This document shows, one piece after another, positions 8,243 to 63,906 of a DNA stretch of 64,000 nucleotides. Positions within the stretch are counted from its first letter, which is position 1; each line of letters begins with the position of its first letter. Below the pieces are notes generated by a model, which was not told where the DNA came from, did not search any database, and saw only the letters and a program-made list of their open reading frames with translations. The position numbers and the translations under genes are program-made. Source of the DNA: a candidate division FCPU426 bacterium (GTDB lineage: Bacteria > Oederibacteriota > Muellerivitia > Muellerivitales > Muellerivitaceae); contig CAWCKJ010000007.1 of assembly GCA_963796105.1 (NCBI GenBank), positions 64,001 through 128,000 of the forward strand, read 5' to 3'.

Positions 8243-9118
8243 TCAACCCCGTCCGCTTCCCTGGAGGCGGGGATCCAGCATATCCCTGAGACCCTCCCCC
8301 AGGAGGTTGTAACCCAGCACCGTGAAAAAGATCGCAAGGCCTGGGAATGTGACCAGCCACCAGGCTTCCATCAGGTGTTCCTTGCCTTCCATGAGCATGT
8401 TTCCCCAGCTGGCGGTGGGAGGCTGGACGCCCAATCCAAGATAACTCAATCCTGATTCCACCAGGATGGCCCCTCCCACCCCCAAGGTGGCCACAACGAT
8501 GACCGGCCCCATCGCGTTGGGAAGTAGGTGCCTTGTGATGAGGCGTAAATCGCTCATGCCGATCAACCGGGCCGCCAGGATATATTCCCTTTCTTTTAGG
8601 GACAAAACTTCACTTCGCACCAGCCGGGCCACGTCGGTCCAAGAGGTCAATCCAATGATAACCATGACATTGATGATGTTGGGCCCCACGAAAGCTATGA
8701 CCATTAAGATAAGAAGAAATGTCGGTATGCACATGAAAATATCGGTGATCCTCATCAAGAGCCCGTCCACCCACCCCCCGTAATAGCCGGCTATGGAACC
8801 GATCGTCACACCTATCAAAATGTAAATCGAGACAGCCACCAATCCCACTACCAGGGAAATTCGGGAACCATAGAGCAAACGGCTGAACACATCCCGCCCA
8901 AACTGGTCCGTTCCCATCCAGTGGTGCCAGGATGGAGCTTGAAGACGGTTTACATCCCCCAAAATTTGAAAATTCGGGTCGAATGGTGCGACCCATTGAG
9001 CGGTAATAGCAGCCGCCACCAGCAGTCCCACCAGTACCAGGCCGCAGAAAAGCAGGGGATGGATTTTAATAAACTGTTTCAACTTCATCCTTTTCTCTCC
9101 CGTTGATCCGTCATTCAC
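8243..9118 (-). CDS. oppC: Oligopeptide ABC transporter permease (OppC/DppC-like)
   Basis: HWMGTDQFGRD, EAA-type loop EREYILAARLIG, HLLPN. Confidence 0.93.
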   Translation of the reverse strand: MNDGSTGEKRMKLKQFIKIHPLLFCGLVLVGLLVAAAITAQWVAPFDPNFQILGDVNRLQAPSWHHWMGTDQFGRDVFSRLLYGSRISLVVGLVAVSIYILIGVTIGSIAGYYGGWVDGLLMRITDIFMCIPTFLLILMVIAFVGPNIINVMVIIGLTSWTDVARLVRSEVLSLKEREYILAARLIGMSDLRLITRHLLPNAMGPVIVVATLGVGGAILVESGLSYLGLGVQPPTASWGNMLMEGKEHLMEAWWLVTFPGLAIFFTVLGYNLLGEGLRDMLDPRLQGSGRG

Positions 9119-9139
9119 GCCGTGATGAATCCGCCATTT

Positions 9140-10111
9140 TTATTTGTACCTGATCCTGGGGTCCAGCATCGCGTAGCCGATATCCGCCAGCAAGCTGCCT
9201 AAAAGGGTCAGGAAAGCCGCGATGATGCTCACCCCCATCACCACCGGGTAATTCCTGGACATGATCGCCTCATAAAAAAGACGGCCCATTCCAGGCCAGC
9301 TGAATATGGTCTCAATAATGGGGCTACCCCCAATTAAACCCGGAAGGGACAACCCAACTAAGGTGATTACCGGAAGAAGCGCGTTGGGAAGGGCATGCCT
9401 GACGACGACCTGAAACTCCGAAAGGCCCTTGGCCCTGGCGGTGCGGATGTAATCCTGTCGTATGACTTCCAGCATGCTGGTGCGGGCGTAGCGCGAGACG
9501 GAGGCCAGTCCCCCAAAAGTGGTGACGAACAGGGGAAGGAACAGGTGCTGGGCCATGTCCCAGGCCTTCTGGTACCAGGGAAGGTACTCGGACCCGATGC
9601 TGGTCATGCCCGAAACCGGAAGCCAGCCCAATTGAACCCCGAATACCAGCATGAGCATCAGGGCCAGCCAAAAGGTCGGGGTGGCGAATCCCACGAAGGA
9701 GAAAAGGGTCGTGAACCGGTCGAACCATTTGCCCTGGTAGTAAGCCGCGGCCACTCCCAAGGGCACCGCGATGAGGAACAGGAGGACTTCCGACAGCCCC
9801 GACAACAGTAGGGTGGCTGGAAGCCTTTCGCCGATGATGCTTAAAACCGGCCTTCCATCTTTGAAGGAAATACCGAAATCAAGCGTGAACATGCCCTTGA
9901 GCCAGCGCCAGTATTGGATATAGACGGGCTGGTCCAGCCCCCAATGGGCCCGCAGTTTGGTAATGTAGCCCGGGTCGATTTTGGAGTTCAGGTTGACGCT
10001 GAGGGAAGCGGGGTCGCCTGGCGCCAGTTTCATGATTCCGAAGGAAAGAATGGAAATTCCCAGGAGCAGGGGAATCATCATCAATAACCGGCGGATCAAG
10101 TATTGGCGCAT
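9140..10111 (-). CDS. oppB: Oligopeptide ABC transporter permease (OppB/DppB-like)
   Basis: PGDPA, DYIRTARAKGL, HALPNA, DPRIRY. Confidence 0.93.
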   Translation of the reverse strand: MRQYLIRRLLMMIPLLLGISILSFGIMKLAPGDPASLSVNLNSKIDPGYITKLRAHWGLDQPVYIQYWRWLKGMFTLDFGISFKDGRPVLSIIGERLPATLLLSGLSEVLLFLIAVPLGVAAAYYQGKWFDRFTTLFSFVGFATPTFWLALMLMLVFGVQLGWLPVSGMTSIGSEYLPWYQKAWDMAQHLFLPLFVTTFGGLASVSRYARTSMLEVIRQDYIRTARAKGLSEFQVVVRHALPNALLPVITLVGLSLPGLIGGSPIIETIFSWPGMGRLFYEAIMSRNYPVVMGVSIIAAFLTLLGSLLADIGYAMLDPRIRYK

Positions 10112-30635: not shown

Positions 30636-30700
30636 TTGATAATCATTTCAACTGTCCACTACACATTCCCGTCATGGATAATCATCATCGGAAGAAAAGT

Positions 30701-32191: not shown

Positions 32192-33211
32192 GGAAAATAA
32201 GGGTCAGGTCTTGAAAACGGCATTACGAATCTTTTCCTCAAGACCCTTTTCCTCACGAATGCGTTTCTTCATCCTTGCCACCGCATGGCTTACCGCGGAG
32301 TATTTTACCCCCATCTTCTTAGCCACTTCCCCTAAACTTAATCGGCATATCTGACGCAAGGCCCATACCGCCGCTTCCCGCCCTTCGTTTTTCCGCCGGG
32401 TCGGAACCACCATATCTTTCACCATAATCCCATGCATTTTCCCGATCTTTTTCAGCGTTTCCTCGGCATCCGGCAAGCCCAATTTCTGTTGTTCCCTGTG
32501 CGCCTCATGGTGATGCTTCCCCCTAATCTTCCCTTTAATGTGCTCCTCAAAACTTTTTCCCCCCAATATGATCTGCGATGTTACTTGCTCCCATGGGCTC
32601 TCTTTCTTCCTCAAACCTTCCAACACGAATTTCCGGTACAAACCCTGCGCCTCATGTTTCACTTTTCCAAACTGTTCCAAAAGCCATTTATTTTCCACCC
32701 ATTCCGGCTCGGTCTCATAACCTGCCGTAGCCCGGTAACTGCTCCATTTCCATTCCTTCGGATGCTTGACCATCTTGGCCCGGACCGGATTCAAGACCAC
32801 ATACCTGCATAATTCCTTTAAATAACTATCCTTATGGACCAAAATCGCCTTATAACGCCCCTGGTACAAATGTCCCGCGCGGTTGTGACGCCGGTTGAAT
32901 CGAAGGGTATAAATTCCATTTAAGTGGCGGAGGGCTTGGGAAAGATTAGCTTCGGGGGTTTCTACCAGCAAATGGTAATGGTTATCCATCAACACCCAGG
33001 CATGAACGACCACCCCGTAAGAATCAACGGTATCCGCCAACGCCCGAATAAAAAGCCACCGGTCCTTGTCATCGCGAACGATAGGTCTTCGTTCGTTCCC
33101 GCGGGAGGTGATGTGATATACAGCGCCTGGATATTGAATTCTTAAGGGACGTGCCATTTCAGTATCTTAATCCGCCCTTATGCCGTTTTCAAGACCTGAC
33201 CCTTGTGTTCT
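32192..33211 (-). mobile_element. IS-like element, copy 1: Y1/HUH transposase with about 32-bp terminal inverted repeats
   Basis: Left GGAAAATAAGGGTCAGGTCTTGAAAACGGCAT, right ATGCCGTTTTCAAGACCTGACCCTTGTGTTCT; near-identical copy at 35763-36782. Confidence 0.9.
32204..33157 (-). CDS. REP-associated-like (RAYT) Y1 tyrosine transposase with C-terminal HTH
   Basis: YHITSRGN, LMDNHYHLL (HUH), GHLYQGRY, RYVVLNPVRA (catalytic Tyr), WSSY. Confidence 0.92.
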   Translation of the reverse strand: MARPLRIQYPGAVYHITSRGNERRPIVRDDKDRWLFIRALADTVDSYGVVVHAWVLMDNHYHLLVETPEANLSQALRHLNGIYTLRFNRRHNRAGHLYQGRYKAILVHKDSYLKELCRYVVLNPVRAKMVKHPKEWKWSSYRATAGYETEPEWVENKWLLEQFGKVKHEAQGLYRKFVLEGLRKKESPWEQVTSQIILGGKSFEEHIKGKIRGKHHHEAHREQQKLGLPDAEETLKKIGKMHGIMVKDMVVPTRRKNEGREAAVWALRQICRLSLGEVAKKMGVKYSAVSHAVARMKKRIREEKGLEEKIRNAVFKT

Positions 33212-35762: not shown

Positions 35763-36782
35763 AGAACATAAGGGTCAGGTCTTGTAAACGGCATTACGAA
35801 TCTTTTCCTCAAGACCCTTTTCCTCACGAATGCGTTTCTTCATCCTTGCCACCGCATGGCTTACCGCGGAGTATTTTACCCCCATCTTCTTAGCCACTTC
35901 CCCTAAACTTAATCGGCATATCTGACGCAAGGCCCATACCGCCGCTTCCCGCCCTTCGTTTTTCTGCCGGGTCGGAACCACCATATCTTTCACCATAATC
36001 CCATGCATTTTCCCGATCTTTTTCAGCGTTTCCTCGGCATCCGGCAAGCCCAATTTCTGTTGTTCCCTGTGCGCCTCATGGTGATGCTTCCCCCTAATCT
36101 TCCCTTTAATGTGCTCCTCAAAACTTTTCCCCCCCAATATGATCTGCGATGTTACTTGCTCCCATGGGCTCTCTTTCTTCCTCAAACCTTCCAACACGAA
36201 TTTCCGGTACAAACCCCGCGCCTTATGTTTCACTTTTCCAAACTGTTCCAAAAGCCATTTATTTTCCACCCATTCCGGCTCGGTCTCATAACCTGCCGTA
36301 GCCCGGTAACTGCTCCATTTCCATTCCTTCGGATGCTTGACCATCTTGGCCCGGACCGGATTCAAGACCACATACCTGCATAATTCCTTTAAATAACTAT
36401 CCTTATGGACCAAAATCGCCTTATAACGCCCCTGGTACAAATGTCCCGCGCGGTTGTGACGCCGGTTGAATCGAAGGGTATAAATTCCATTTAAGTGGCG
36501 GAGGGCTTGGGAAAGATTAGCTTCGGGGGTTTCTACCAGCAAATGGTAATGGTTATCCATCAACACCCAGGCATGAACGACCACCCCGTAAGAATCAACG
36601 GTATCCGCCAACGCCCGAATAAAAAGCCACCGGTCCTTGTCATCGCGAACGATAGGTCTTCGTTCGTTCCCGCGGGAGGTGATGTGATATACAGCGCCTG
36701 GATATTGAATTCTTAAGGGACGTGCCATTTCAGTATCTTAATCCGCCCTTATGCCGTTTTCAAGACCTGACCCTTGTGTTCT
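35763..36782 (-). mobile_element. IS-like element, copy 2: Y1/HUH transposase with TIRs
   Basis: AGAACATAAGGGTCAGGTCTTGTAAACGGCAT ... ATGCCGTTTTCAAGACCTGACCCTTGTGTTCT; 1020 bp, same length as copy 1. Confidence 0.9.
35775..36728 (-). CDS. RAYT-like Y1 tyrosine transposase, copy 2
   Basis: Same motifs as copy 1; differs at only a few residues (HEAQG/HKARG, RRK/RQK, VFKT/VYKT). Confidence 0.92.
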   Translation of the reverse strand: MARPLRIQYPGAVYHITSRGNERRPIVRDDKDRWLFIRALADTVDSYGVVVHAWVLMDNHYHLLVETPEANLSQALRHLNGIYTLRFNRRHNRAGHLYQGRYKAILVHKDSYLKELCRYVVLNPVRAKMVKHPKEWKWSSYRATAGYETEPEWVENKWLLEQFGKVKHKARGLYRKFVLEGLRKKESPWEQVTSQIILGGKSFEEHIKGKIRGKHHHEAHREQQKLGLPDAEETLKKIGKMHGIMVKDMVVPTRQKNEGREAAVWALRQICRLSLGEVAKKMGVKYSAVSHAVARMKKRIREEKGLEEKIRNAVYKT

Positions 36783-53080: not shown

Positions 53081-53632
53081 GTAGGGTCGAGGACTGGCGA
53101 GGTGATGTGCAGGTTGATCCTTGGCTTGTTTCCCCGTTTCCTTCGCTCCGCGGACATTACTCCGCTTCTCCTGTCTGCCGAAGCTTCAGCGCAGGCAGAT
53201 AGCTACTTTTAACCCGTCCTACTCCCTCTTGCCTTCGACCGCCTTCCCGCGTTGCGTTATACGGCCTACCTTTTTCCAAGTATTTCTACTTGGGGCAAGG
53301 AGGGTCTCTCCAGTTGCTCAATGTGTCCTTGTCTTCATGCCGTGGCTAAGCACCCCGCCAGAGTGTTCCAGCGCATTGGCCATCTGGCCGCTGTTCCATG
53401 TTGCCTTCATCCCACGACGGAGGATTCGGCCTCTGGGGCTATTGTTTTCGGGGCCACCTATGCCTTCACTTGCGTTACGGCCTGACGACTCGCTCACCAT
53501 CCCGAAGATGGCTTTGTCGATGGGCTTCAGGCATTAAGTTTCCCGCTTGCCTGCCATCCTAGCTAATGGGCTTTGGCTATTACCCATGCAAGTCTACCTC
53601 TTGCTGAACACTCCTGCCTTTTCTGGACGCGC
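53081..53632 (-). mobile_element. Group II intron, degenerate ORF-less copy lacking domain V
   Basis: Same 5' (GCGCGTCCAGAAAAGGC) and 3' (GTCCTCGACCCTAC) ends as the adjacent copy; about 310-bp internal deletion. Confidence 0.85.
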
Positions 53633-54494
53633 GTAGGGTCGAGGACTGGCGCGGCGATGTGCAGGTAAACCCTTGGCTTGTTTCCCCGTTTCCGGTTCCG
53701 TGCCCGTTTAGGGTCTTCCATCATTCCGTTTCCAGCCCCCGCCACCTCGAACGCAACGTGCGGATTTCCCGCATTGCGCTCTCCTGTTGCTTTCGCGTCA
53801 AAGTTTATGGTGCTTATCGAAACCGGCAGTGCTTTCAAGTATGGTTCGCCTATGAACTTTCCCCTACTCCACCTGTCCCGGCTTTCTAAGCTTTCCCTTT
53901 AACGTATATCCCTCGTCTCAGGTCTTGCAGACTAATGGACGTCTTTTTCATACCGTCCCTGCCTCCCACTTTTGCCGAAAGATTTCACAACAGCAGGGTT
54001 ACTTCGCTCCACGGACATTACTCCGCTTCTCCTGTCTGCCAAAGCTTCAGCGCAGGCAGATAGCTACTTTTAACCCGTCCTACTCCCTCTTGCCTTCGAC
54101 CGCTTTCCCGTTTTTCGGTTATACGGCCTACCCTTTTCCAAGTATTTCTACCTGGGGCAAGGAGGGTCTCTCCAGTTGCTCAATGTGTCCTTGTCCTCAT
54201 GCCGTGGCTAAGCACCCCGCCAGAGTGTTCCAGCGCATTGGCCATCTTGCAGCTGTTCCATGTTGCCTTCATCCCACGACGGAGGATTCGGCCTCTGGGG
54301 CTATTGTTTTCGGGGCCACCTATGCCTTTACTTTCGTTACGGCCTGACGACTCGCTCACCATCCCGAGGATGGCTTTGTCGATGGGCTTCAGGCAGTCGG
54401 TTTCCCTCCTGCCTGCCATCCTAGCTAATGGGTTTTGGCTATTACCCATGCAAGTCTACCTCTTGCTGAACACACCGGCCTTTTCTGGACGCGC
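53633..54494 (-). mobile_element. Group II intron, ORF-less, with intact-looking DV/DVI
   Basis: DV GAGCGCAATGCGGGAAATCCGCACGTTGCGTTC (about 53749-53781, AGC triad); 3' end CCCTAC; remnant of intron-encoded protein start MKKTSISLQDLRRGIYVKGKA* at 53951-53886. Confidence 0.92.
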
Positions 54495-54551
54495 CGTCGT
54501 GGACAACCCGAACCCTAAAATATCGAGACTGCTGTGGTCACAGTTTTGGTT

Positions 54552-55520
54552 CTACTTTTGATTCCCGATTTTGGCGTCAACTCCAGATACTTCTACAACC
54601 GCCTTCCAAAGGGCGTCCTGATTTGCGCGGTCATGGAGGTGTTCATGGCGCATGATCTCAATGGGACCCGTCATCTTTTTTGGAGGCGAGCAAAAGAACT
54701 TGCCAGAAACATCGACGCCAAACTTCGAGGCGGCGAGATACCTTTTGGCCCCTTCATCGACGGAATGTGACATTCCGGGAATAAGTTTCGAAATCCGCAC
54801 AAATACGTTCTTCATAAGAAAACCTAGATTGCGAGGCGCCAGGGTATCTGGAGCGGCCCCGGGTGAAACCGCGTATACGGCCATGTCCGCAGGAAGCTTT
54901 CGAGCAAGGGCCGCGACCCACCACGCGACAAATATTTTAGCGTCAGAGTAAGCCGTGCTAGCCTTGTATTTTACATTCGGGGAGCTGCGCAAAATCGCTT
55001 CTATGGCTGAAACCCGGTCGCCTTTGTACTCTTTCGCGGCGAATGCCGCCAAGTCGGTAAATTGAAACATGGGTACATCACCTCGCGCAGGTTCCGCGCC
55101 GGCAATAACAATACGAGCATCCGGCGCCAGAAGTCCGGCACCTAAAAGTCCCATCGTTAACTGGTGATGGCCGATCAACGGCGCTTGCGAAGCCTCAATG
55201 TTCTCGCTTGTCACAACACGTTCTTTGCCTGGCATCATACCAGCGTTGAGAAGGAGAAAATCTATGGGTTCGCCTCCCGCTCCCTTAACTAGCTCGGCGA
55301 CCGCCTTCTTCACGCTTGCAAACGAATCTAGGTCGAGGGCAAGACCGGTGATGTTTTGTGTTCCGGCATCGATCTTTAACCTGCTAACCGCTTCATCCAC
55401 CTGGGGCCGGCTACGTCCAGTGACTATAACCTGACTCCAACCATCCATGGCAAGTTGCTTGGCTGCCGAGTATCCTAAGCCAGACGTAGCGCCGGTAACG
55501 AGTGCGACAGGCTTTTTCAT
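54552..55520 (-). CDS. Short-chain dehydrogenase/reductase
   Basis: TGATSGLG, NAG, YSDAK. Confidence 0.9.
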   Translation of the reverse strand: MKKPVALVTGATSGLGYSAAKQLAMDGWSQVIVTGRSRPQVDEAVSRLKIDAGTQNITGLALDLDSFASVKKAVAELVKGAGGEPIDFLLLNAGMMPGKERVVTSENIEASQAPLIGHHQLTMGLLGAGLLAPDARIVIAGAEPARGDVPMFQFTDLAAFAAKEYKGDRVSAIEAILRSSPNVKYKASTAYSDAKIFVAWWVAALARKLPADMAVYAVSPGAAPDTLAPRNLGFLMKNVFVRISKLIPGMSHSVDEGAKRYLAASKFGVDVSGKFFCSPPKKMTGPIEIMRHEHLHDRANQDALWKAVVEVSGVDAKIGNQK

Positions 55521-55669
55521 AGTTTGTCTCCTAAGTCTAACATTGTGGGAAATAGAACCATTTAATTATTGTAGTATACGCTACAGAATGACCCAACTAC
55601 TGTCAAGTGATATTGTTGCGGTTGCTACAAATAGATTGTCCGAAGTGTTTCGTATGGGTAAAATGAAGC

Positions 55670-56257
55670 ATGAGTCGAAAAATAGAATTTAATTACGATA
55701 ACGCGGTGGATCAAGCGATGCGGGTTTTCTGGGGTGAGGGATACTCTGGCGCATCATTAAAAGACCTTCTCAAGGCGATGAAAATTGGGGAAGGCTCCTT
55801 CTACAATACCGTCAAAAGCAAAAAACAACTCTACATCGAATGCTTGAATCGATATGGAGAGGTCGAAGGTAATAAAAGAATTTTGGCTCTAACATCAGCC
55901 CCGAATGCGCGTCTCGGACTTCGGGCTATGCTAAGCGCAATGTTCGATTGTCTCGATGATCCGAAGAATCCTTCATCTCTTTGCATGATTGCGGCAATGA
56001 TTTCCAATGATGTCATGGCTGATAGCGAATTAAAGAAAGCTGCTATTGCCAGGGTCAATCAAGGCAAAAAGTTAATTGAAGATAAGATTGATGAAGACAA
56101 AAAAGCTGGGCGTCTTCCTAAAAGCTATGACTCACATACAGTTGCTGATGTCATAGTTACTTACTTCCAGGGCATTTGGCGTATGGCCATGATTTCATAC
56201 AAACGGGAAAAGTTCGAGCGCGAATCAGAAGCATTTCTTCAAGGATTGGGCCTTTAG
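55670..56257 (+). CDS. TetR/AcrR-family regulator, divergent from the SDR gene
   Basis: FWGEGYSGASLKDL...GSFYN...SKKQLY. Confidence 0.92.
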   Translation: MSRKIEFNYDNAVDQAMRVFWGEGYSGASLKDLLKAMKIGEGSFYNTVKSKKQLYIECLNRYGEVEGNKRILALTSAPNARLGLRAMLSAMFDCLDDPKNPSSLCMIAAMISNDVMADSELKKAAIARVNQGKKLIEDKIDEDKKAGRLPKSYDSHTVADVIVTYFQGIWRMAMISYKREKFERESEAFLQGLGL

Positions 56258-56354
56258 CTTTAGAATTTCCGAATCACACTGATACTCCAACTTCCAAGTC
56301 ACTGACACTTCGCCCGAAGTGAAACAAGAAAATTAGTACAAAAAGGTCTTTTTT

Positions 56355-56386
56355 CTTGTCCACGAAGGGTCCCCGTCGTGGACAAG
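56355..56386. repeat. Palindromic repeat CTTGTCCACGAAGGGTCCCCGTCGTGGACAAG
   Basis: Family members also at 54495-54506, 57533-57562, 57576-57603, 62136-62163 and 62793-62817. Confidence 0.85.
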
Positions 56387-56513
56387 CTTTCGGTCAAAAG
56401 CGTCACCAAGAACGCCATGTTAAAATTCGCGGCCAAAATTTTCCACACTGACTGTTTTTCAAAAGAACCAATCGCTCACCCTGCCCAATTTGGCCTTCCG
56501 GGCATGCGCCGGT

Positions 56514-57509
56514 CTAATTTTTTGATAGAATTTCCAACAATTGGGTTCGGTATTCCGGATCTTTCATGGTTTTTACTTCTCTTTCATCCATCAATTGTCT
56601 CAGCCAACATTTTTGATAAGGCTGACCGTTTTTCGCCATGGTTTTCAATTTTTCAAAAAAGTCCCTTATCACTGTTGGATAATCGAGGCCGGTACTCGCA
56701 ATAGCCCGATGTTTGGCAAAAGTTTTGTTTTTTGTATTTAAGTTTGGGTTTCGAAGGTCATAAGTGAAAACAAGTTCGTCTGTGAATAACAATCCGGTTC
56801 CCTTCTTTGGCTTCTCTGGTAAATGGCAGTTGAGCCTGTTGTAATAACCTATATAGAAATTAAATTTTACTGTGAATTGGAGTTGGTCTTTTATTTGCTT
56901 GATATTTGAGCTGTAATCAAAGTCGTCGTCTCCTACCGAAACACTCCCTTCCAGTGGCAGCTCGCCGATTTCCTGATATTTGCCGTTTATAATTTTAAAA
57001 ACATCATAGTCGTAAGATTCGACACCGCTTCCACCATCTGTTTGAACTCCGAGCAAAACAAATAAGTTCGGCGGGCTATCCACAATCATTGGTTTAATTG
57101 CCTTGTATTTTGCGAGTTCGGTAACCATTCCAAGATACGACATTTTTCCCTGTTCTAAAATAAATAGGCCGGTGCAATTATTGCCATTCCCATTAACTGA
57201 AATCGTCAATAAGGTTCTTCCATCATTTATTTTGGAGGCCACAATAACTGGCGTTGTTTCAGCTAATTCTTTGGCGTCGGTCTCTAACTTATCTCCTTCT
57301 GAAAGGAATTGAGGAAGCAAATCGGAAAAGAATTTGTCCCGTCCTTCTCCGTTCACGTGATATTCGTTCAAAATCTCCAATAATTTTCCCCTGGGGGTTT
57401 TCCAATCCATCTTTTCACCAAGGCTTATAGAGGGGATAAGGCAGAGGACAATGAACCACGACAGAAAAAGTTGTCCGGGGACTATTTTGGTTTCTTGTCC
57501 ATTTTTCAT
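56514..57509 (-). CDS. Hypothetical secreted protein (AT-rich)
   Basis: Long ORF; AGGAG RBS before ATG at 57509; N-terminal hydrophobic segment. Confidence 0.7.
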   Translation of the reverse strand: MKNGQETKIVPGQLFLSWFIVLCLIPSISLGEKMDWKTPRGKLLEILNEYHVNGEGRDKFFSDLLPQFLSEGDKLETDAKELAETTPVIVASKINDGRTLLTISVNGNGNNCTGLFILEQGKMSYLGMVTELAKYKAIKPMIVDSPPNLFVLLGVQTDGGSGVESYDYDVFKIINGKYQEIGELPLEGSVSVGDDDFDYSSNIKQIKDQLQFTVKFNFYIGYYNRLNCHLPEKPKKGTGLLFTDELVFTYDLRNPNLNTKNKTFAKHRAIASTGLDYPTVIRDFFEKLKTMAKNGQPYQKCWLRQLMDEREVKTMKDPEYRTQLLEILSKN

Positions 57510-57532
57510 ACTATTCTCCTGCAAGAAAACTT

Positions 57533-57603
57533 TTGTCCACGGCGCGGGCACTTCATGGACAACCCTTTTTCCCTCTCCACTCTGGGTCCCCGTCGTGGAC
57601 AAG
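57533..57603. repeat. Two copies of the TGTCCACGAC/GTCGTGGACA palindromic family
   Basis: TTGTCCACGG...CATGGACAA and TCCACTCTGGGTCCCCGTCGTGGACAAG. Confidence 0.75.
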
Positions 57604-57651
57604 GAAGAATGTTAATTTCCTATGATTGAATTGTTTACAACGCTAGGATAA

Positions 57652-57682
57652 AAATCGGGCAGGCAATTTAAGCCCGCCCGAT
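57652..57682. terminator. Possible intrinsic terminator hairpin downstream of dipZ
   Basis: ATCGGGCAGGC...GCCCGCCCGAT stem with an A-run on the left (U-tail on the minus strand). Confidence 0.4.
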
Positions 57683-57730
57683 CACTTAGAAGATTAAGCT
57701 TGAACACATCGAGCAAAGGTCAAAACCAAA

Positions 57731-59461
57731 TCATCCGAAAGTAAAGGCATAGACGGAGGTACCTGCGTTTTGGAATTCGATACGCAGGCGATGGGAGCCG
57801 GGCTTTCCCTTTAAGTCCGCCAGGTTATAAAGCCGCTGGGTGTCCAGTGTCACCTTTCCATCCTTCACATCCGCTCCTCCCTCGCCGCCAATGGCTTTTC
57901 CATCAAGGAAAAGGGAGACCTGGTCGCCCTTGTTCGCCGGGCCGATCACCAGATACACCTTGTCCGCCGTGAATTGAATCTCAAGGGCCGAGCCCTGATC
58001 CGGCTTGGCCGCCTCGCCCGTAAGCATCCAACCGCCCTCGTAGCCGATCTGGTGGGACTTCAGGGACTTCGGCAGGGAATAAACCTGCTTCCCGGCGACG
58101 GGTTTTTGCGGCGAGACGAAACGCTCCAATCGGTTCAACCCCAAATAAGATTCGGGGGTCTGGTCGTAATCCTCAGATGGGGCCTGCGCCAGGGTAGCGG
58201 CCCCTTCCACGGGATGGCCGGCCTCAGCCAGCAGCTTTCTGATGGCGGCGTCCATCTCCTCGTAATGGCCCTCGCTGAAATGAGCCAGACGGATATGACC
58301 CTTGTCGTCGATCAGGTACTCGGCGGGCCAGTACATATTTTGGTAGGCGTTCCAGGTTTTAAAGTCGTTGTCCTGGGGGACAGGATAGGTGATCTCGAAC
58401 TGTTTCAGGGCTTTTTGGACGTTGGCGGTTTCCTTCTCAAAGGCAAACTCGGGCGCGTGGACCCCCACTAGGACGAAATGGTCCGGACCGTATTTTTGAT
58501 ACCAGGCCTTGGTGTTGGGAAGGGTCCGGAGACAGTTGATGCAACTGTAGGTCCAAAAGTCAACCAAAACCACCTTTCCCCTCAACCCCGCCAGTGTTAG
58601 GGGAGGGCTGTTGAGCCAGTTCGTGATGCCGGCGAACTCTGGCGCCGGGCCCATGTCCGCAAGTTCCCCCCCATTTCTGCGCTTTCCTGGCGGGATTTCC
58701 TTCCCCTCAGGGTATCCAACTGCTCGCTGACGATCTTGTTGTTTTCAACCCCATTGACCAGGCTCCCATAGGAAGGAAAAGCCTCCAGGATCTTCAGCTG
58801 AATGGTCTTATCGTAATTGGTGTAAATGAGAAGGGCCACGCCGATCATGATGACGCCGAAGACCTGCTGGATGCGGCCCGTGTACTTGTTTAACTTGCGC
58901 ATCCGGGCGAAGAGGAAAGAACCCCCCAGGGAGACCAGGAACAGCGGTATCCCCAACCCCACCGCGTAGGCGAGGGTCACCAGTACCACCTGAAGATTGA
59001 CCGATTGGGTGGCGGCTAAGGTGGCGATGGTGGCCAGGATCGGTCCGGCGCAGGGCGCCCAGACCAAGCCGATGGAAAAACCCGCCACGTAGCCAGCGCC
59101 GAATCCCGTCCCTTCGCCCTTCCCCTGAAGGCGGTTTTGCAGGGGCTGAAGAACCTGGTTAATCCAGGTCTCGAACTTCGCGCCCAGGGAGGGGAATAAA
59201 AGGGCCACACCCAAAAGGCCGATGACAATGACCGCGACTAGTCTGAAGACATTGGCGTCAATGTGGAGGAAACGCTCTAGGTAGGACACAAACAGCGTGA
59301 AAAGGGTGAAGCTGGTCATGACCCCCAGGGTCAGGCCGAAGGGTTTTTCCCTTTCCCCCGGTTGAGGAGACAGAAAGCACCAGGGGCAGAAGGGGCCAAA
59401 TGCAGGGGGCGAGGATGGTGGCGAAGCCAGCCAGGAAGCTGAAGAAGAGAAGGAAAAGCAT
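57731..59461 (-). pseudogene. dipZ: DipZ-like CcdA plus thioredoxin fusion with two frameshifts (pseudogene or sequencing error)
   Basis: LAPCIWPLLP, WAPCAGPIL and DFWTYSCINC lie in three ORF pieces; breaks at homopolymers near 59350 and 58668. Confidence 0.85.
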
Positions 59462-59562
59462 GGGAACCCCTTTCGGTGGATTTGTTGACTTAAACTACAA
59501 CGAATCACCCTGAAAATTTACGGAAACCCCTTCCATCAACACCTCTTTTTGCGTGAACCCCA

Positions 59563-60225
59563 TCAAGGGTGTTGGTGAATGGCTTCTTGCGCCACCTTCA
59601 ACAATTCATCCGTATCAACCCGCACTTTAATGTCTGGGTTGAAATAAACGTAATGAATAATCCCTTTTTGATCGACGACATAAGCGGCCGGGACCGGAAG
59701 CAGGTGGAGCTGGTTCCCCGTTGCCGAATCCAGGTCCACGCCGAAACTTTTCATTTTGGCCAGGGTTTCCGGGTTGAGCCGGTAGGCCAGGTGAAATTTC
59801 CGGGTCAATTCCATGGAACGGTCCGAAAGGAGGGTGTAGTTGATCTGGTGCTTGTCCAGGCTTTCCTTAAGTTTTTCCGGCTTATCCGGGCTTATGGCCA
59901 GCATCTGGTATCCCATTTCTAGGAGTTTTGGCTCGATCTTCACCAACTGGCCCATTTGAAGGTTGCAATAGGGGCACCATCCGCCTCGGTAAAAGATCAG
60001 CACCGTCGGCTTTTTCAGGATTTCGGACTTAAAATGAAAATCTTTCCCGTCCAGGGTTTTTAAAATCCCGTCAGGTATGGAATCCCCTGATTTAAGTGGG
60101 TGGACATCTTCGGCTTTGTCCGCTACGAATTTGTTCATGGGTGCGGCCACGACACCCCCCCTTGAAGCAACCATCGAAAGGCAAAAAAAGCTTACGAATA
60201 AAAACGCCCCTATTTTCACTCTCAT
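59563..60225 (-). CDS. AhpC/TSA-like peroxiredoxin-family protein
   Basis: FYRGGWCPYC, AISPD, LPVPA. Confidence 0.9.
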   Translation of the reverse strand: MRVKIGAFLFVSFFCLSMVASRGGVVAAPMNKFVADKAEDVHPLKSGDSIPDGILKTLDGKDFHFKSEILKKPTVLIFYRGGWCPYCNLQMGQLVKIEPKLLEMGYQMLAISPDKPEKLKESLDKHQINYTLLSDRSMELTRKFHLAYRLNPETLAKMKSFGVDLDSATGNQLHLLPVPAAYVVDQKGIIHYVYFNPDIKVRVDTDELLKVAQEAIHQHP

Positions 60226-60460
60226 ATCCTCCGTTGACTATTGGTTGAACGGAATATTAAAAATCCAAAAAGGGCCTTATGACCCATCTCTTGGTAGGCG
60301 AAAGGAGAAAATCGAACGGCAGGAAGTCAACTAGGCATTGAAATTGCCGCCAGTTCTTTTTCGGCGCCCCAAAAGCTTTTTTCCGCCTCCCGTGGTGCCC
60401 TTTCCCTTCGAGGGCCCAGGGCCCTGAGCACCCTTGAAGGTGTGGTTCAACTTTCCTTTT

Positions 60461-60985
60461 TTACGGTTTCTTTTCGGACACGAACCGCACTGCGGCGGAG
60501 TTTATGCAATACCTCAGGCCCGTGGGTAGCGGCCCGTCGTCGAAAACATGGCCCAGGTGCCCCCCACAGCGGGGGCAATGGACCTCCGTCCGGTCCATGC
60601 CCAAGGAAGAATCGGTTTGGGAGGCCACGTTTTCCGGATAGAGGGGCTTATAAAAACTGGGCCACCCGGTTCCAGACTCGAACTTGGTGCCGGAGGAGAA
60701 AAGCTCCAGGCCGCACCCGGCGCACACATAGACCCCCTTCGCATGGTTGTCCCAATAGGCGCCGGAAAAGGCGGCTTCCGTTCCCCCTTGTCGAAGGACA
60801 TCGAACTGTTCGGGATTGAGGATTTTCTTCCATTCGGAGTCGGTCTTAACGACCTTGTCACCCCTGTATTTTCCTTTATAACATTCTTTCTCCTTGTGGA
60901 CCGCCGAATCTTTCGCGAACACGGCATAGGATAGGGCGGATAACACGAAGAGAATTCCCAATAACAATCCCATCATTTTTCTCAT
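60461..60985 (-). CDS. msrB: Peptide methionine-(R)-sulfoxide reductase with signal peptide
   Basis: [30 protein letters not shown]. Confidence 0.96.
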
Positions 60986-61169
60986 GGCAAGCTTTTTAGG
61001 TGGTAAATTTCTTTCCCCTCTTTACAAGAATACGGCTCAGGGCAGGATAAGGTTACCCTGCCATCGGTTACATCTTTTGGGTCGTCTGGGTCAAGAACAC
61101 CCAAGGAAATCCGGGGGTCCCGGGAACCAAAATAATATACATAATCCTTTTGTTGAGGCCGTATCTGTT

Positions 61170-61952
61170 TCAAGGAACAATTGGGTAAACCCAACCCACA
61201 CCACCAATTTTCATAGTGTACTCATCTTCCAAAAAAATGGCGAGGCCGGTGAAGCTCTTTTTCCATTCAGGCTCCAAGGAAACGGTAGTTTTAATCCATT
61301 CTGCTTTTTTCAAGGAAACACTCCTTATTCCAACAACCGAGCGAACTACAAAATTTTCGGTCAAGTCCCTGCCTTTGTTTTCTCCACTTTCAACATGGGT
61401 TATTAAATTATTTTCGAAAACAGCCATCATGACTTTCCAGGGCCCGCCCGTTTGCGATCCGGCTAAAGGCTGGAGCTTAATCTTGAGGGCCATTCCTCCC
61501 GTGACCGGCGAAACAGCGACGACCACCCGAGCCGATGCCTTGAGGTTGTCCGGCTCCTCGATTTCCCGGTGGGCTCTGGCGCCATCCGAAGCGACGAAAC
61601 CTGAGCGTCCCGAAACAACCATTTCAGGGGTATAAAGTGAGGAGGAACTCAAAGCGGAAGAATATTGACGCTGACGTTCCGTGAAAAATGACGAGGAGAA
61701 GGGATCTTTCCATCCCAGGTAATCCCAGTAATCCACGTGGAAGGCGAGCGGCAGGGCTTTACCGGCGCGGAAAAGTTCCATTCCCCAGCCGTTGACAAGG
61801 TCTCCCGCCGGAGGGCAACTGGAACAGCCTTGGGAAACAAACAATTGGATCAAGAGTGGCTGTTCGGGAATTGGACGGGACTGTCCATGGGCCGGAATCA
61901 GCAAAGACAGCCCCATCAATACTAGCGACGCTTTGAAATATTTAAAAACCAT
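61170..61952 (-). CDS. DUF1223 thioredoxin-like secreted protein
   Basis: SQGCSSCPPA, HVDYWDYLGWKDPF, YTP, GENKGR. Confidence 0.88.
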   Translation of the reverse strand: MVFKYFKASLVLMGLSLLIPAHGQSRPIPEQPLLIQLFVSQGCSSCPPAGDLVNGWGMELFRAGKALPLAFHVDYWDYLGWKDPFSSSFFTERQRQYSSALSSSSLYTPEMVVSGRSGFVASDGARAHREIEEPDNLKASARVVVAVSPVTGGMALKIKLQPLAGSQTGGPWKVMMAVFENNLITHVESGENKGRDLTENFVVRSVVGIRSVSLKKAEWIKTTVSLEPEWKKSFTGLAIFLEDEYTMKIGGVGWVYPIVP

Positions 61953-62135
61953 GCTTTTCTTTGACACCACTTTAAAAGAGTCGCCATTAAAGGTTATTGG
62001 CGGGGATAAGGCAAGGCCCGAAGAACCCGCTAAATGATTTAGATTCACGTTTTTTCCAATTTATCTTTCAGTAGCGAAATACCCTTGTGGCTTTGTTTAA
62101 GTTACTGATTTTTGATTAATATTTGAAATGTTCAT

Positions 62136-62163
62136 TGTCCACGACGGGTCCCCGTCATGGACA
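62136..62163. repeat. Palindromic repeat family copy
   Basis: TGTCCACGACGGGTCCCCGTCATGGACA, 13 bp from the stop of the 62177 gene. Confidence 0.85.
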
Positions 62164-62176
62164 GCTTTAAAGCCAT

Positions 62177-62764
62177 TCAAGGAAGAATACTTAGTCCCGC
62201 CACAATAGGAATATATTCCTCGGTATCCCCGCTAAGAAAAATAATGTCCATTCCTACCATGCAATAAACGGCCAATCCCTGGGAAAGCGATACTTCCAAA
62301 CCGATACCGCCCAAGGCCATGGGACAAGTATCGGAAATATGGTTGTCGAAGGAGTAAGGCATGCCAAACGACATACCCTTTTCCCTTGAATTGTCGGAAT
62401 AAAATGAAAAACCGCCCCCGGCCTCAATAACGATATGAAGCGGATCATTCCCAAAGCGCTTCTTGCAAACGAGCGATTCATTCAAGATTGTTTTCCCGCC
62501 GCCCAATGAAAAAACAGTCTGGTCAGGGCCGGAATTAGGGGGTTGATAGGCGATTGAATAATAAGCGGTCTGCTCGCCCAGGGTAAATTGATCGCCAATT
62601 GGAAGGCCGAGAAAAAGGCCCGTCCCCCAGCCCAGGGCATCAACGTCACTGCCTGTGGTGGCCACACCCCCAAAAGGTGAAATTTCAATATTTGAGATAT
62701 CGCCCTTGGCCCATACTGTTGATGTGGCAAACACAATAGAAATTAAAATGAATAATATTTTCAT
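62177..62764 (-). CDS. Small outer-membrane beta-barrel-like hypothetical protein
   Basis: Signal peptide, amphipathic strands, AAGGAG RBS. Confidence 0.6.
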   Translation of the reverse strand: MKILFILISIVFATSTVWAKGDISNIEISPFGGVATTGSDVDALGWGTGLFLGLPIGDQFTLGEQTAYYSIAYQPPNSGPDQTVFSLGGGKTILNESLVCKKRFGNDPLHIVIEAGGGFSFYSDNSREKGMSFGMPYSFDNHISDTCPMALGGIGLEVSLSQGLAVYCMVGMDIIFLSGDTEEYIPIVAGLSILP

Positions 62765-62792
62765 TTTTTCTCCTTAATAAAACTATTTATCA

Positions 62793-62817
62793 TCCAATCT
62801 GGGTTCCCGTCGTGGAC
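62793..62817. repeat. Palindromic repeat family copy with degenerate left arm
   Basis: TCCAATCTGGGTTCCCGTCGTGGAC abutting the stop codon of the 62818 gene. Confidence 0.7.
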
Positions 62818-63906
62818 TTATTTTGTAATCGACCCCGCAGTCGCTTCCTCCACAAAAAGCCTAGATGCGGGAGCCAGATTGGTTCCTGAGAAAGTGGCCT
62901 GATTTAAGATGGTTGTCTGGACGTTATATAGGGTCGAACCGGTGGCCACCGGATAAGCCGCCGAAAGATCCGCCGGGGAGTTTATATCGGGCCCAATGGA
63001 AGTATAGGAATCATACGTGGTCACCGGCCCTCCGGTTTGTTGAATAACAACAATCCCATCCGAATTCCCCTCGTAGGTCCAAGTGATGGCCGTACCTGCC
63101 GCGTTGGCCGTAAGGCCGCCAGGGGCGCTGACCGATGCCGAGGTGACGGTTCCCAGGGAAGTGCTGACCGACATCGAGTAACTTCCCGCGAGCTGATATG
63201 TCACGGCCGTGGAGTAAGAATACCAAGCCATTCCGTTGTAATTCGTTAAGTATGGAAGCGTCAAGGGGCCGCTTGGAGTGTTTAAAACCACCGAATCCGT
63301 GGTTTCCGGCAAACCGTTGACGGTAATCCATGCAAAAGGTGTCATACTCAATGTTCCATCCCCCCAAGCGTAGCCCTGGACATAGATACCCGGTGGAAAT
63401 GTGGCTGTTGGTGTCGATGTTGCTGTAGCTGGAACCGTATTGGTGATAGTTGGGCTGTTGGTGGGCGTCCTCGTGGGGGTTTTGGTCGTGGTATTTGTTG
63501 GGGTATAAGTAATGGTAGGAGTTCCTGTTGGCGTAGCCGTAGGGGTTATGGTAGCTGTATTCGTCTGGGTAGACGTGGCCGTTTTCGTCGGGGTGGAAGT
63601 GATTGTCGGCGTGACTGTGTTCGTGGGGCTGTTGGTCGGGGTAGAAGTCGATGTAACCGTTGGTGTGGAAGAAGCTGTTGAGGTGGCCGTCGATGTGGGG
63701 GTGGAAGTGGAGGTGCCGGTTTGCGTACAAGTCGAGGGATAGCAGACACTGGTGGATGTAAGGGTCATAGTCGGTGTATCGGTAGCGGTAGCTTTTTTAG
63801 CCGGGGGGTTTGTGGGGTTATTAGAGTTGCTGCAGGCGATCGGGAAAAGTCCCAAGAAAAAAAGAAGGATTAAACCTAAACCCAAAAGGAAAAATGATCG
63901 GCGCAT
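62818..63906 (-). CDS. TP-linker lipoprotein
   Basis: PIAC lipobox, SNSNNPTNP, long Thr/Pro linker, distinct C-terminal domain. Confidence 0.8.
   Translation of the reverse strand: MRRSFFLLGLGLILLFFLGLFPIACSNSNNPTNPPAKKATATDTPTMTLTSTSVCYPSTCTQTGTSTSTPTSTATSTASSTPTVTSTSTPTNSPTNTVTPTITSTPTKTATSTQTNTATITPTATPTGTPTITYTPTNTTTKTPTRTPTNSPTITNTVPATATSTPTATFPPGIYVQGYAWGDGTLSMTPFAWITVNGLPETTDSVVLNTPSGPLTLPYLTNYNGMAWYSYSTAVTYQLAGSYSMSVSTSLGTVTSASVSAPGGLTANAAGTAITWTYEGNSDGIVVIQQTGGPVTTYDSYTSIGPDINSPADLSAAYPVATGSTLYNVQTTILNQATFSGTNLAPASRLFVEEATAGSITK

Follow-up and report, generated by a model that had tools for sequence, protein, structure and literature searches.

What sets the boundaries between the unrelated blocks of accessory genes that follow one another along a 64,000-nucleotide stretch of the genome of a candidate division FCPU426 bacterium? 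This stretch, hereafter the window, corresponds to G000:C7:64001-128000, G000 being the 4.98-Mb source genome; other G-numbers stand for genomes and L-numbers for fetched loci. An initial annotation, made from the sequence alone, had noticed palindromes between the blocks and proposed that they are recombination sites of a gene-capture system whose enzyme is not adjacent, possibly an HUH or tyrosine recombinase. The main idea holds, as the sites are clustered and synteny breakpoints fall at them; the guess at the enzyme is unsupported, since a short serine recombinase is repeatedly linked to the sites in relatives. From these comparisons we consider it probable that cassettes of one to four genes, arrayed throughout the family, are exchanged at the 28-bp palindromes by this short serine recombinase.

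Each palindromic site is made of a 13-bp variable (left) arm, a TC core and a 13-bp conserved (right) arm. Sites were scored with a position weight matrix (PWM) seeded on four window sites and one just past the window end, with a cut-off score of at least 20. The window holds the following sites:

56357-56384, plus strand, full 28-bp site, PWM score 47.1
57574-57601, plus strand, full 28-bp site, PWM score 41.9
62136-62163, plus strand, full 28-bp site, 13 bp from the stop codon of a beta-barrel gene
62791-62818, plus strand, full 28-bp site, its last base overlapping the stop codon of a lipoprotein gene
57534-57561, minus strand, degenerate site, probably inverted, score 26.3 on the minus versus 14.1 on the plus strand
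54495-54505, plus strand, half-site abutting the 5' end of a group II intron and comprising site positions 18-28, the outermost 11 bp of the conserved arm
30653-30680, plus strand, isolated further site of the same family, score 28.8, between a dehydrogenase gene and a HicA-type toxin-antitoxin pair

The four full sites score 27.8-47.1 and share one orientation, in keeping with the co-orientation first described; that description fails for the degenerate site, located 12 bp from its neighbour at 57574, and what was listed at 54495 is the half-site cut by the intron. The proximity of two sites to stop codons is confirmed, at distances of 13 bp and -1 bp, as is the better conservation of the right arm: random site pairs differ at 1.9 right-arm versus 4.2 left-arm positions. 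The blocks were also rightly said to differ in composition (GC contents of 47.6, 40.5, 52.3, 45.1 and 52.2%). The motif had been thought absent from the housekeeping half of the window, wrongly, as the site at 30653-30680 lies in the first half. An exact search for the full palindrome gave 0 matches in the window, because the arms vary.

Across G000, 58 sites reach the cut-off, versus 1 in an order-4 Markov control of equal length. They are intergenic, clustered and located in accessory regions: none of the 58 lies inside a confidently called open reading frame (ORF; our own simple gene caller, 83% of the genome being coding), and 35 adjacent pairs fall within 5 kb, versus a random mean of 3.2 (maximum 12 in 2000 draws). 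Polarity is marked, with 31 of these 35 pairs co-oriented (direct), the conserved arm facing a stop codon at 51 of the 58 sites and the variable arm facing a start codon at 45, both being true at 41. Neighbouring sites do not duplicate one another. A block flanked by co-oriented sites has a median length of 1049 bp, and the GC content of such blocks is 48.4%, versus 51.2% for the genome. Many of the 137 proteins that were scanned, encoded within the arrays or close to them, are toxin-antitoxin, Fic, Sel1 or GNAT proteins or have no assignment. At the level of the family, a 17-nt motif is found in all 30 same-family genomes in 1-112 copies (0-2 for a reversed-pattern control) and at 0-5 copies in 30 other genomes; G025, from the same order, has three copies, yet only a full-length form of the enzyme. 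A genome-wide scan and a comparison of relatives had been named at the outset as the way to expose an ordinary dispersed repeat; the scan found no even spread, and the comparison found breakpoints at the sites.

The arms themselves record where exchange takes place. We compared the 250-bp flanks of 299 sites from G000 and from fetched regions of nine relatives (10 genomes in all). Clusters that have only the right flank in common at 97% identity or more (n=9) show 0.11 right-arm versus 3.11 left-arm mismatches, and those that have only the left flank in common (n=12, after dropping two clusters in which a multicopy element abuts the site from outside) show 0.14 left-arm versus 0.87 right-arm mismatches. 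The core never differs within flank-sharing clusters. In single informative pairs, positions 12-13 travel with the left flank and position 18 with the right flank, which brackets the exchange to positions 14-17, an interval that holds the TC core at a resolution coarser than 2 bp. The core reads TC in 278 of the 299 sites, and the 6-bp centre GGTCCC is found in only 221. Near-identical gene blocks change neighbours exactly at the sites, with arms split at the centre. That this is a real cassette array with exchange at its sites is, by sequence comparison, very highly probable.

The 13-2-13 symmetry of the site suggested a serine recombinase, and a PF00239 scan located a gene of 275-281 amino acids (aa) adjoining sites in several relatives. 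Its product carries the Resolvase (PF00239) and Recombinase (PF07508) domains only, in five proteins out of five. The zinc ribbon (PF13408) and the coiled coil are absent from the short clade, whose 19 top homologues end at 275-283 aa, retain an intact and invariant YVRVSS catalytic motif, and form one side of a branch opposite 30 longer relatives (support 100/99). The predicted fold (pLDDT 82, replacing an earlier five-sequence model at pLDDT 61) best matches large serine integrases. A site stands behind the 3' end of the short gene in all 11 distinct family loci that retain this end: 8-36 bp past the stop in ten, among them one split by the intron, and 23 bp past the match in the remaining, frameshifted copy. 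None of nine full-length recombinase loci has a site within 1.5 kb of the match. Among 80 metagenome loci, both short-clade loci carry the site or, at a contig end, its start, and the other 78 gave one weak site match. Searching genome contigs with the five-protein alignment returned six loci. Three are short genes; the remaining three, at 47-59% identity, comprise two full-length genes and one ended by the contig end, and none of these three has a site. The short gene points against the cassette genes and so converges on the array. Upstream genes were scanned at five loci and include an ArdC-type gene at three of them, which suggests a mobile carrier. The source genome appears to have lost the short recombinase, and holds a full-length relative, a 512-aa gene at C6:130228-131022 that is 57% identical over the shared region. 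Taken as sequence evidence, the association makes the short serine recombinase the likely enzyme of the cassette arrays.

In addition, G001 and G000 share 6 kb at 99.95% identity (L143:1-6077 and G000:C14:3892-9968), past which G001 continues into a short-recombinase locus and G000 into a Thr/Pro-rich gene.

The conserved arm likely descends from the tRNA half-site of the parent enzyme, to judge from the ends of the longer genes. Among the 64 full-length relatives whose stop is visible, a tRNA-3'-like sequence forms the end of 45; 24 show GGC-TC in the register of the site, and 16 exceed the 99.9th percentile of random DNA on a half-site profile covering site positions 12-28. The TC core is lacking from 21 of the 45 tRNA-like ends. 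The closest full-length relative (62%) terminates in a 17-base perfect match to the 3' end of the G000 tRNA-Asn, which scores 9.9 on the half-site profile, the other 27 scored tRNA ends reaching -9.5 or lower. One G000 site (C2:259684) joins a cassette-type left arm to a tRNA-like T-arm. The outer GGA is common to all tRNA ends, and the specific part is only TCCCCG.

How might such an enzyme operate? The short serine recombinase would likely cut and rejoin sites at the central TC, each subunit binding one 13-bp arm through its recombinase domain. The contact area of this domain is 13 bp, the zinc domain lying at positions 16-24 (PMC3783163), so that a zinc-less enzyme would cover 13+2+13 bp, the size of the site. 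Cassettes would be excised as circles and probably reinserted at other copies of the site. The asymmetric TC core would keep them in one orientation and, with neither zinc ribbon nor coiled coil, any site could pair with any other. The arrays of the source genome may be orphans, the enzyme arriving on a mobile element. Experiments on engineered truncations, as described in PMC3783163, support excision, which was promiscuous within a molecule once the coiled coil had been removed, and make insertion by the short enzyme the weakest step.

We lean slightly towards a wider reading, in which the integron would have been invented a second time, independently. A large serine integrase directed at tRNAs would have lost its zinc ribbon and coiled coil, its half-site would have become a symmetric 28-bp universal joint, and the resulting 276-aa enzyme would capture, stack and shuffle cassettes across the family, accompanied by its own site-targeting group II intron. 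If true, the cassette-array architecture evolved twice, and a path by which a one-way integrase of phage type became an enzyme that shuffles between many sites can be put to the test; there would also be a natural 276-aa recombinase with a short site, whereas a related engineered truncation bound poorly. Integron finders look for IntI and attC, so a serine system of the same layout would escape them. A literature search, over titles and abstract openings and with thin coverage of subscription journals, returned no paper describing this system.

In the window, the sites delimit five cassettes, and the array continues past its end with sites at G000:C7:128009 and 128619 and a weak one near 129951:

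54552-56257, cassette 1: SDR gene (54552-55520, minus strand) and divergent TetR gene (55670-56257, plus strand), assigned by Pfam
56514-57509, minus strand, cassette 2: AT-rich gene for a hypothetical protein of 331 aa, no Pfam match, block GC 40.5%
57731-61952, minus strand, cassette 3: split DipZ-like gene (57731-59461), peroxiredoxin-like gene (59563-60225), MsrB gene (60461-60985) and DUF1223 gene (61170-61952)
62177-62764, minus strand, cassette 4: predicted outer-membrane beta-barrel protein of 195 aa, no Pfam match
62818-63906, minus strand, cassette 5: Thr/Pro-rich predicted lipoprotein

Pfam bears out the cargo names given initially (SDR, TetR, DipZ-like, AhpC/TSA, SelR for MsrB, and DUF1223), and the 195-aa protein resembles outer-membrane beta-barrels (Atlas features 0.98, with the family on 34-49% of members, a lead only). 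The SDR-TetR block recurs at 90-92% identity in other contexts in G002, G041 and G042, which belong to other genera. In G002 and G042 it ends with the same left arm as the 56357 site (one mismatch), followed by unrelated DNA, and G042 has also kept the right arm at the SDR end. The lipoprotein gene of cassette 5 has a 96% identical counterpart in G001. As for cassette 3, the DipZ part is 79-83% identical to genes of G041 and G002 that have no site in the surrounding 11 kb, so that this block may be captured chromosomal DNA; the window gene is broken over several reading frames. At L004:3618-6060, two sites enclose an intact 576-aa DipZ-like paralogue together with a peroxiredoxin-like neighbour.

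A number of observations weigh against a cassette array run by the short serine recombinase. The 19 short proteins are the top matches of a profile built from five of them, so their clustering arises partly by construction. Only 5 of 30 relatives have the gene intact, and G019, G042 and G044 retain broken remnants of it; the searches did not recover it from the site-rich G006, G011, G016, G022 and G023, nor from G000, where only a 75-bp match to its 3' end together with a site is present (C6:187366-187440). In the experiments described in PMC3783163, the integrase lacking the coiled coil gave no intermolecular integration, and the one lacking the zinc domain bound about 25-fold more weakly. 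Exchange of one strand only, at the border of a 6-bp spacer, would also agree with the interval 14-17. Arm pairing is slightly above expectation (2844 versus 2813 +/- 13 in shuffles, 9 of 1000 of which reach it, the related sequences being non-independent). As regards the window cassettes, the site at 57534-57561 is inverted, the G002 and G041 copies of cassette 1 lack a site at the SDR end, and the homology of the G001 lipoprotein gene stops at the outer edge of the 62791 site, not at its centre. Comparison with empty sites gave no clean case for the window locus, and BLAST of 12 G001 array loci against G000 likewise gave none.

Two rival explanations retain recombination at the sites and assign it to another enzyme. 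Read as 11-6-11, a format that 28 bp also fits, the site could be recombined in trans by a host tyrosine recombinase (a XerC/D-like pair or other), the short serine gene being a mere cassette. In its favour, PF00589 has 36 matches in G000, a XerC/D-like tandem pair at C8 among them; genomes that lack the short gene and yet have sites would be accounted for by an enzyme common to all hosts; and the arm data agree with exchange of a single strand at 17|18. We nonetheless judge this explanation unlikely: the sites are direct repeats in 31 of 35 pairs, whereas dif modules lie between opposite pdif sites (PMC10132070); positions 12-13, which this reading places in the spacer, are variable and follow the left flank; the 779 kb of fetched relative DNA contains tyrosine recombinase matches only in one locus, which was fetched for its intron; and the short gene opposes the cassette genes and is followed by a site in 11 of 11 loci. 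Slightly less probable again is integration in trans by a full-length large serine recombinase such as the 512-aa enzyme of G000, with the short form only resolving or deleting. The presence of that gene, 57% identical over the shared region, the tRNA half-sites resembling the arm at which parent enzymes end, and the failure of engineered truncations to integrate in the experiments of PMC3783163 all speak for it. The G000 enzyme, however, ends at a tRNA-Gln half-site scoring -20.4 on the profile, no site lies near the nine full-length loci, and the sites lack a conserved distal flank motif that a zinc domain could contact, the weights being near zero beyond 1 bp (2 bp per side modelled).

The other two rivals dispense with a dedicated cassette recombinase. 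A dispersed hairpin, similar to repetitive extragenic palindromes (REP) or to terminators and merely targeted by mobile elements, would account for the group II intron and for the multicopy element (G041, G042) that target the site, as well as for the small arm-pairing excess; G000 also has 16 matches to Y1 transposases (PF01797), and the 317-aa one that was tested passes the REP-associated family cut-off. Such a hairpin is very improbable as the whole explanation, given that near-identical blocks swap neighbours exactly at sites with arms split at the centre, that pairing at positions 7-10 of the inner stem is seen in only 47-63% of 291 sites, and that the sites are clustered in accessory regions (35 pairs versus 3.2) with a U-tail at only 10 of 299, its absence having been noted from the start. 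We give least credit of all to array building by Cas1-Cas2, with the palindrome as a CRISPR-like repeat duplicated on insertion. A cas1-cas2 pair does start 44 bp from a G000 site and stands beside sites in G002 and G041. The module, however, has its own 37-bp repeat, and of the 28-bp site it has the left arm and core alone, as any cassette would; its copies in G042 and G046 have no site, and close copies occur in 4 of 30 relatives. Neighbouring sites, moreover, do not duplicate one another, and the hybrid arms largely refute this scheme. Cas1 was in fact our first candidate for the cassette enzyme and turned out to be cargo with its own repeat.

The proposed serine-recombinase system works like an integron, yet it is no member of the integrons, of the dif modules or of the attP x attB systems. 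It shares with integrons the rows of short accessory cassettes of uniform polarity, the toxin-antitoxin cargo, the arrays without a nearby enzyme and the closing of co-oriented cassettes by a site after the stop codon (51 of 58 sites, 31 of 35 pairs). Integron cassette capture needs IntI and folded attC sites. IntI (TIGR02249, E <= 1e-40) was found in none of 31 family genomes, a search in which 14 control genomes also gave none and which thus has no positive control; XerC/D-like proteins score 122-129 bits on the IntI model, versus a cut-off of 265. One end motif of attC is RYYYAAC. The other is GTTRRRY (PMC8876359). The 28-bp sites lack these ends, as had been observed in the window: both motifs occur within 60 nt at only 4 of 299 sites. 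Whereas attC is a variable, folded single-strand site, the site described here is fixed and near-symmetric with probable central exchange; its arms show a small pairing excess and are inherited separately. The enzyme linked to it belongs to the serine recombinases, and its gene and the array converge.

With the large serine recombinases (phiC31, Bxb1, A118/LI integrase) the system has in common the catalytic and recombinase domains, a proposed 2-bp asymmetric core and a site at the 3' end of the gene, and the short enzyme is 50-60% identical to tRNA-targeting full-length relatives. It differs in having neither zinc ribbon nor coiled coil, in using one symmetric 28-bp site family with freely mixed arms instead of distinct attP and attB sites of 40-50 bp, and in the dozens of sites per genome that bound enzyme-free cassettes. 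SCCmec-type composite islands stack modules at one chromosomal att site by means of full-length serine recombinases. They resemble our arrays in their serial modules separated by direct-repeat sites and in their serine enzyme, while the 28-bp arrays occupy many loci and have modules of about 1 kb. CRISPR arrays, beside cas1-cas2, have repeats that are identical and are duplicated whenever an insertion occurs, whereas neighbouring 28-bp sites differ and the cas1-cas2 module has a separate repeat. The dif modules of Acinetobacter also consist of small modules bounded by 28-bp sites with one better conserved half and an enzyme acting in trans, and insertion sequence (IS) elements insert beside pdif (PMC10132070). 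Their pdif pairs are inverted and resemble chromosomal dif, whereas the sites studied here are direct (31 of 35) with a variable 6-bp centre. We take the sequence of the 28-bp site to be unlike dif.

A further likeness to integrons is the targeting of the site by a group II intron, as IIC-attC introns do (PMC3001079); the use of the sites as an intron target, proposed initially, is supported by an intron joined to a site arm. The window has two tandem copies:

53633-54494, minus strand, ORF-less group II intron, first copy, Rfam RF02003 at 54332-54468
53081-53632, minus strand, second copy of the tandem, likewise an ORF-less group II intron and internally deleted, RF02003 at 53470-53606

The first is joined to the conserved arm between site positions 17 and 18, and the second, 95% identical, is inserted exactly at the 3' end of the first; no recognisable left arm is present at the far end of these introns. 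Relatives that encode a reverse transcriptase (1.94 kb) use position 17|18 in 10 of 14 distinct junctions, a count that leaves out one fetched locus (L246) with no junction entry, and the left arm is intact in seven of the eight junctions whose far side is visible. No PF00078 reverse transcriptase was found in G000, which leaves the window introns without a helper in this assembly. Elsewhere, a 32-bp intron match lies near the site at C3:817845, a G042 site (L241:4240-4290) has a 22-bp insert, possibly a scar, at the 17|18 insertion point, and two intron copies in G041 (L253, L254) occupy a second shared target unlike the 28-bp site.

Other elements also gather at the sites. At 10 sites of G041 and G042 the variable arm is bordered on its outer side by a multicopy element, similar to the way in which IS elements target pdif. 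In several half-sites the left side is replaced by a recurring sequence that ends in a hairpin and may be a small element with the core as its insertion point:

Sites abutted by the multicopy element: L125:1016; L127:5312, 6444; L132:5425, 7925, 9634; L133:7235; L153:4022, 8591, 13691
Half-sites with a hairpin-ended left side: G000:C4:717619, 719627, 720708, 1484007, 833360; C6:185642, 188795

The cas1-cas2 pair and its 37-bp CRISPR-like repeat (L013:3444-4876, G000:C5:44444-45875) look like a Cas1-Cas2 array with kilobase spacers, for which a single literature search found nothing. The 37-bp repeat has 14 co-oriented copies in G000, spaced by 1.3-6.9 kb, and forms runs of four and six copies at 0.7-2.6-kb spacing in G041. 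Its positions in G000 include:

C6:78387, 80013, 81321, 82663; C4:829902, 828009; C4:7383, 3421
C5:45839, 49379; C4:1471837, 1478727

The 1.5-kb module is 92-99.9% identical across four genera, and the DNA past the repeat differs in each copy and may start in the middle of a gene. In G000, G002 and G041 it rides as a cassette of the 28-bp system.

Some minor features complete the picture. The window contains two copies of the gene for the 317-aa Y1 (HUH) transposase, at 32721-33169 and 36292-36740 (L015:5205-6158 and 8776-9729). Between 40870 and 51202 extends a run of genes for Thr/Pro-rich predicted lipoproteins or secreted proteins, with no 28-bp sites and with duplicated non-coding flanks (40870 and 44172; 48438 and 49167). 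Elsewhere in G000, two sites in inverted orientation (G000:C3:300420 and 301395, L003) stand between panB and panC, and the interval of about 1 kb that they enclose contains no called gene.

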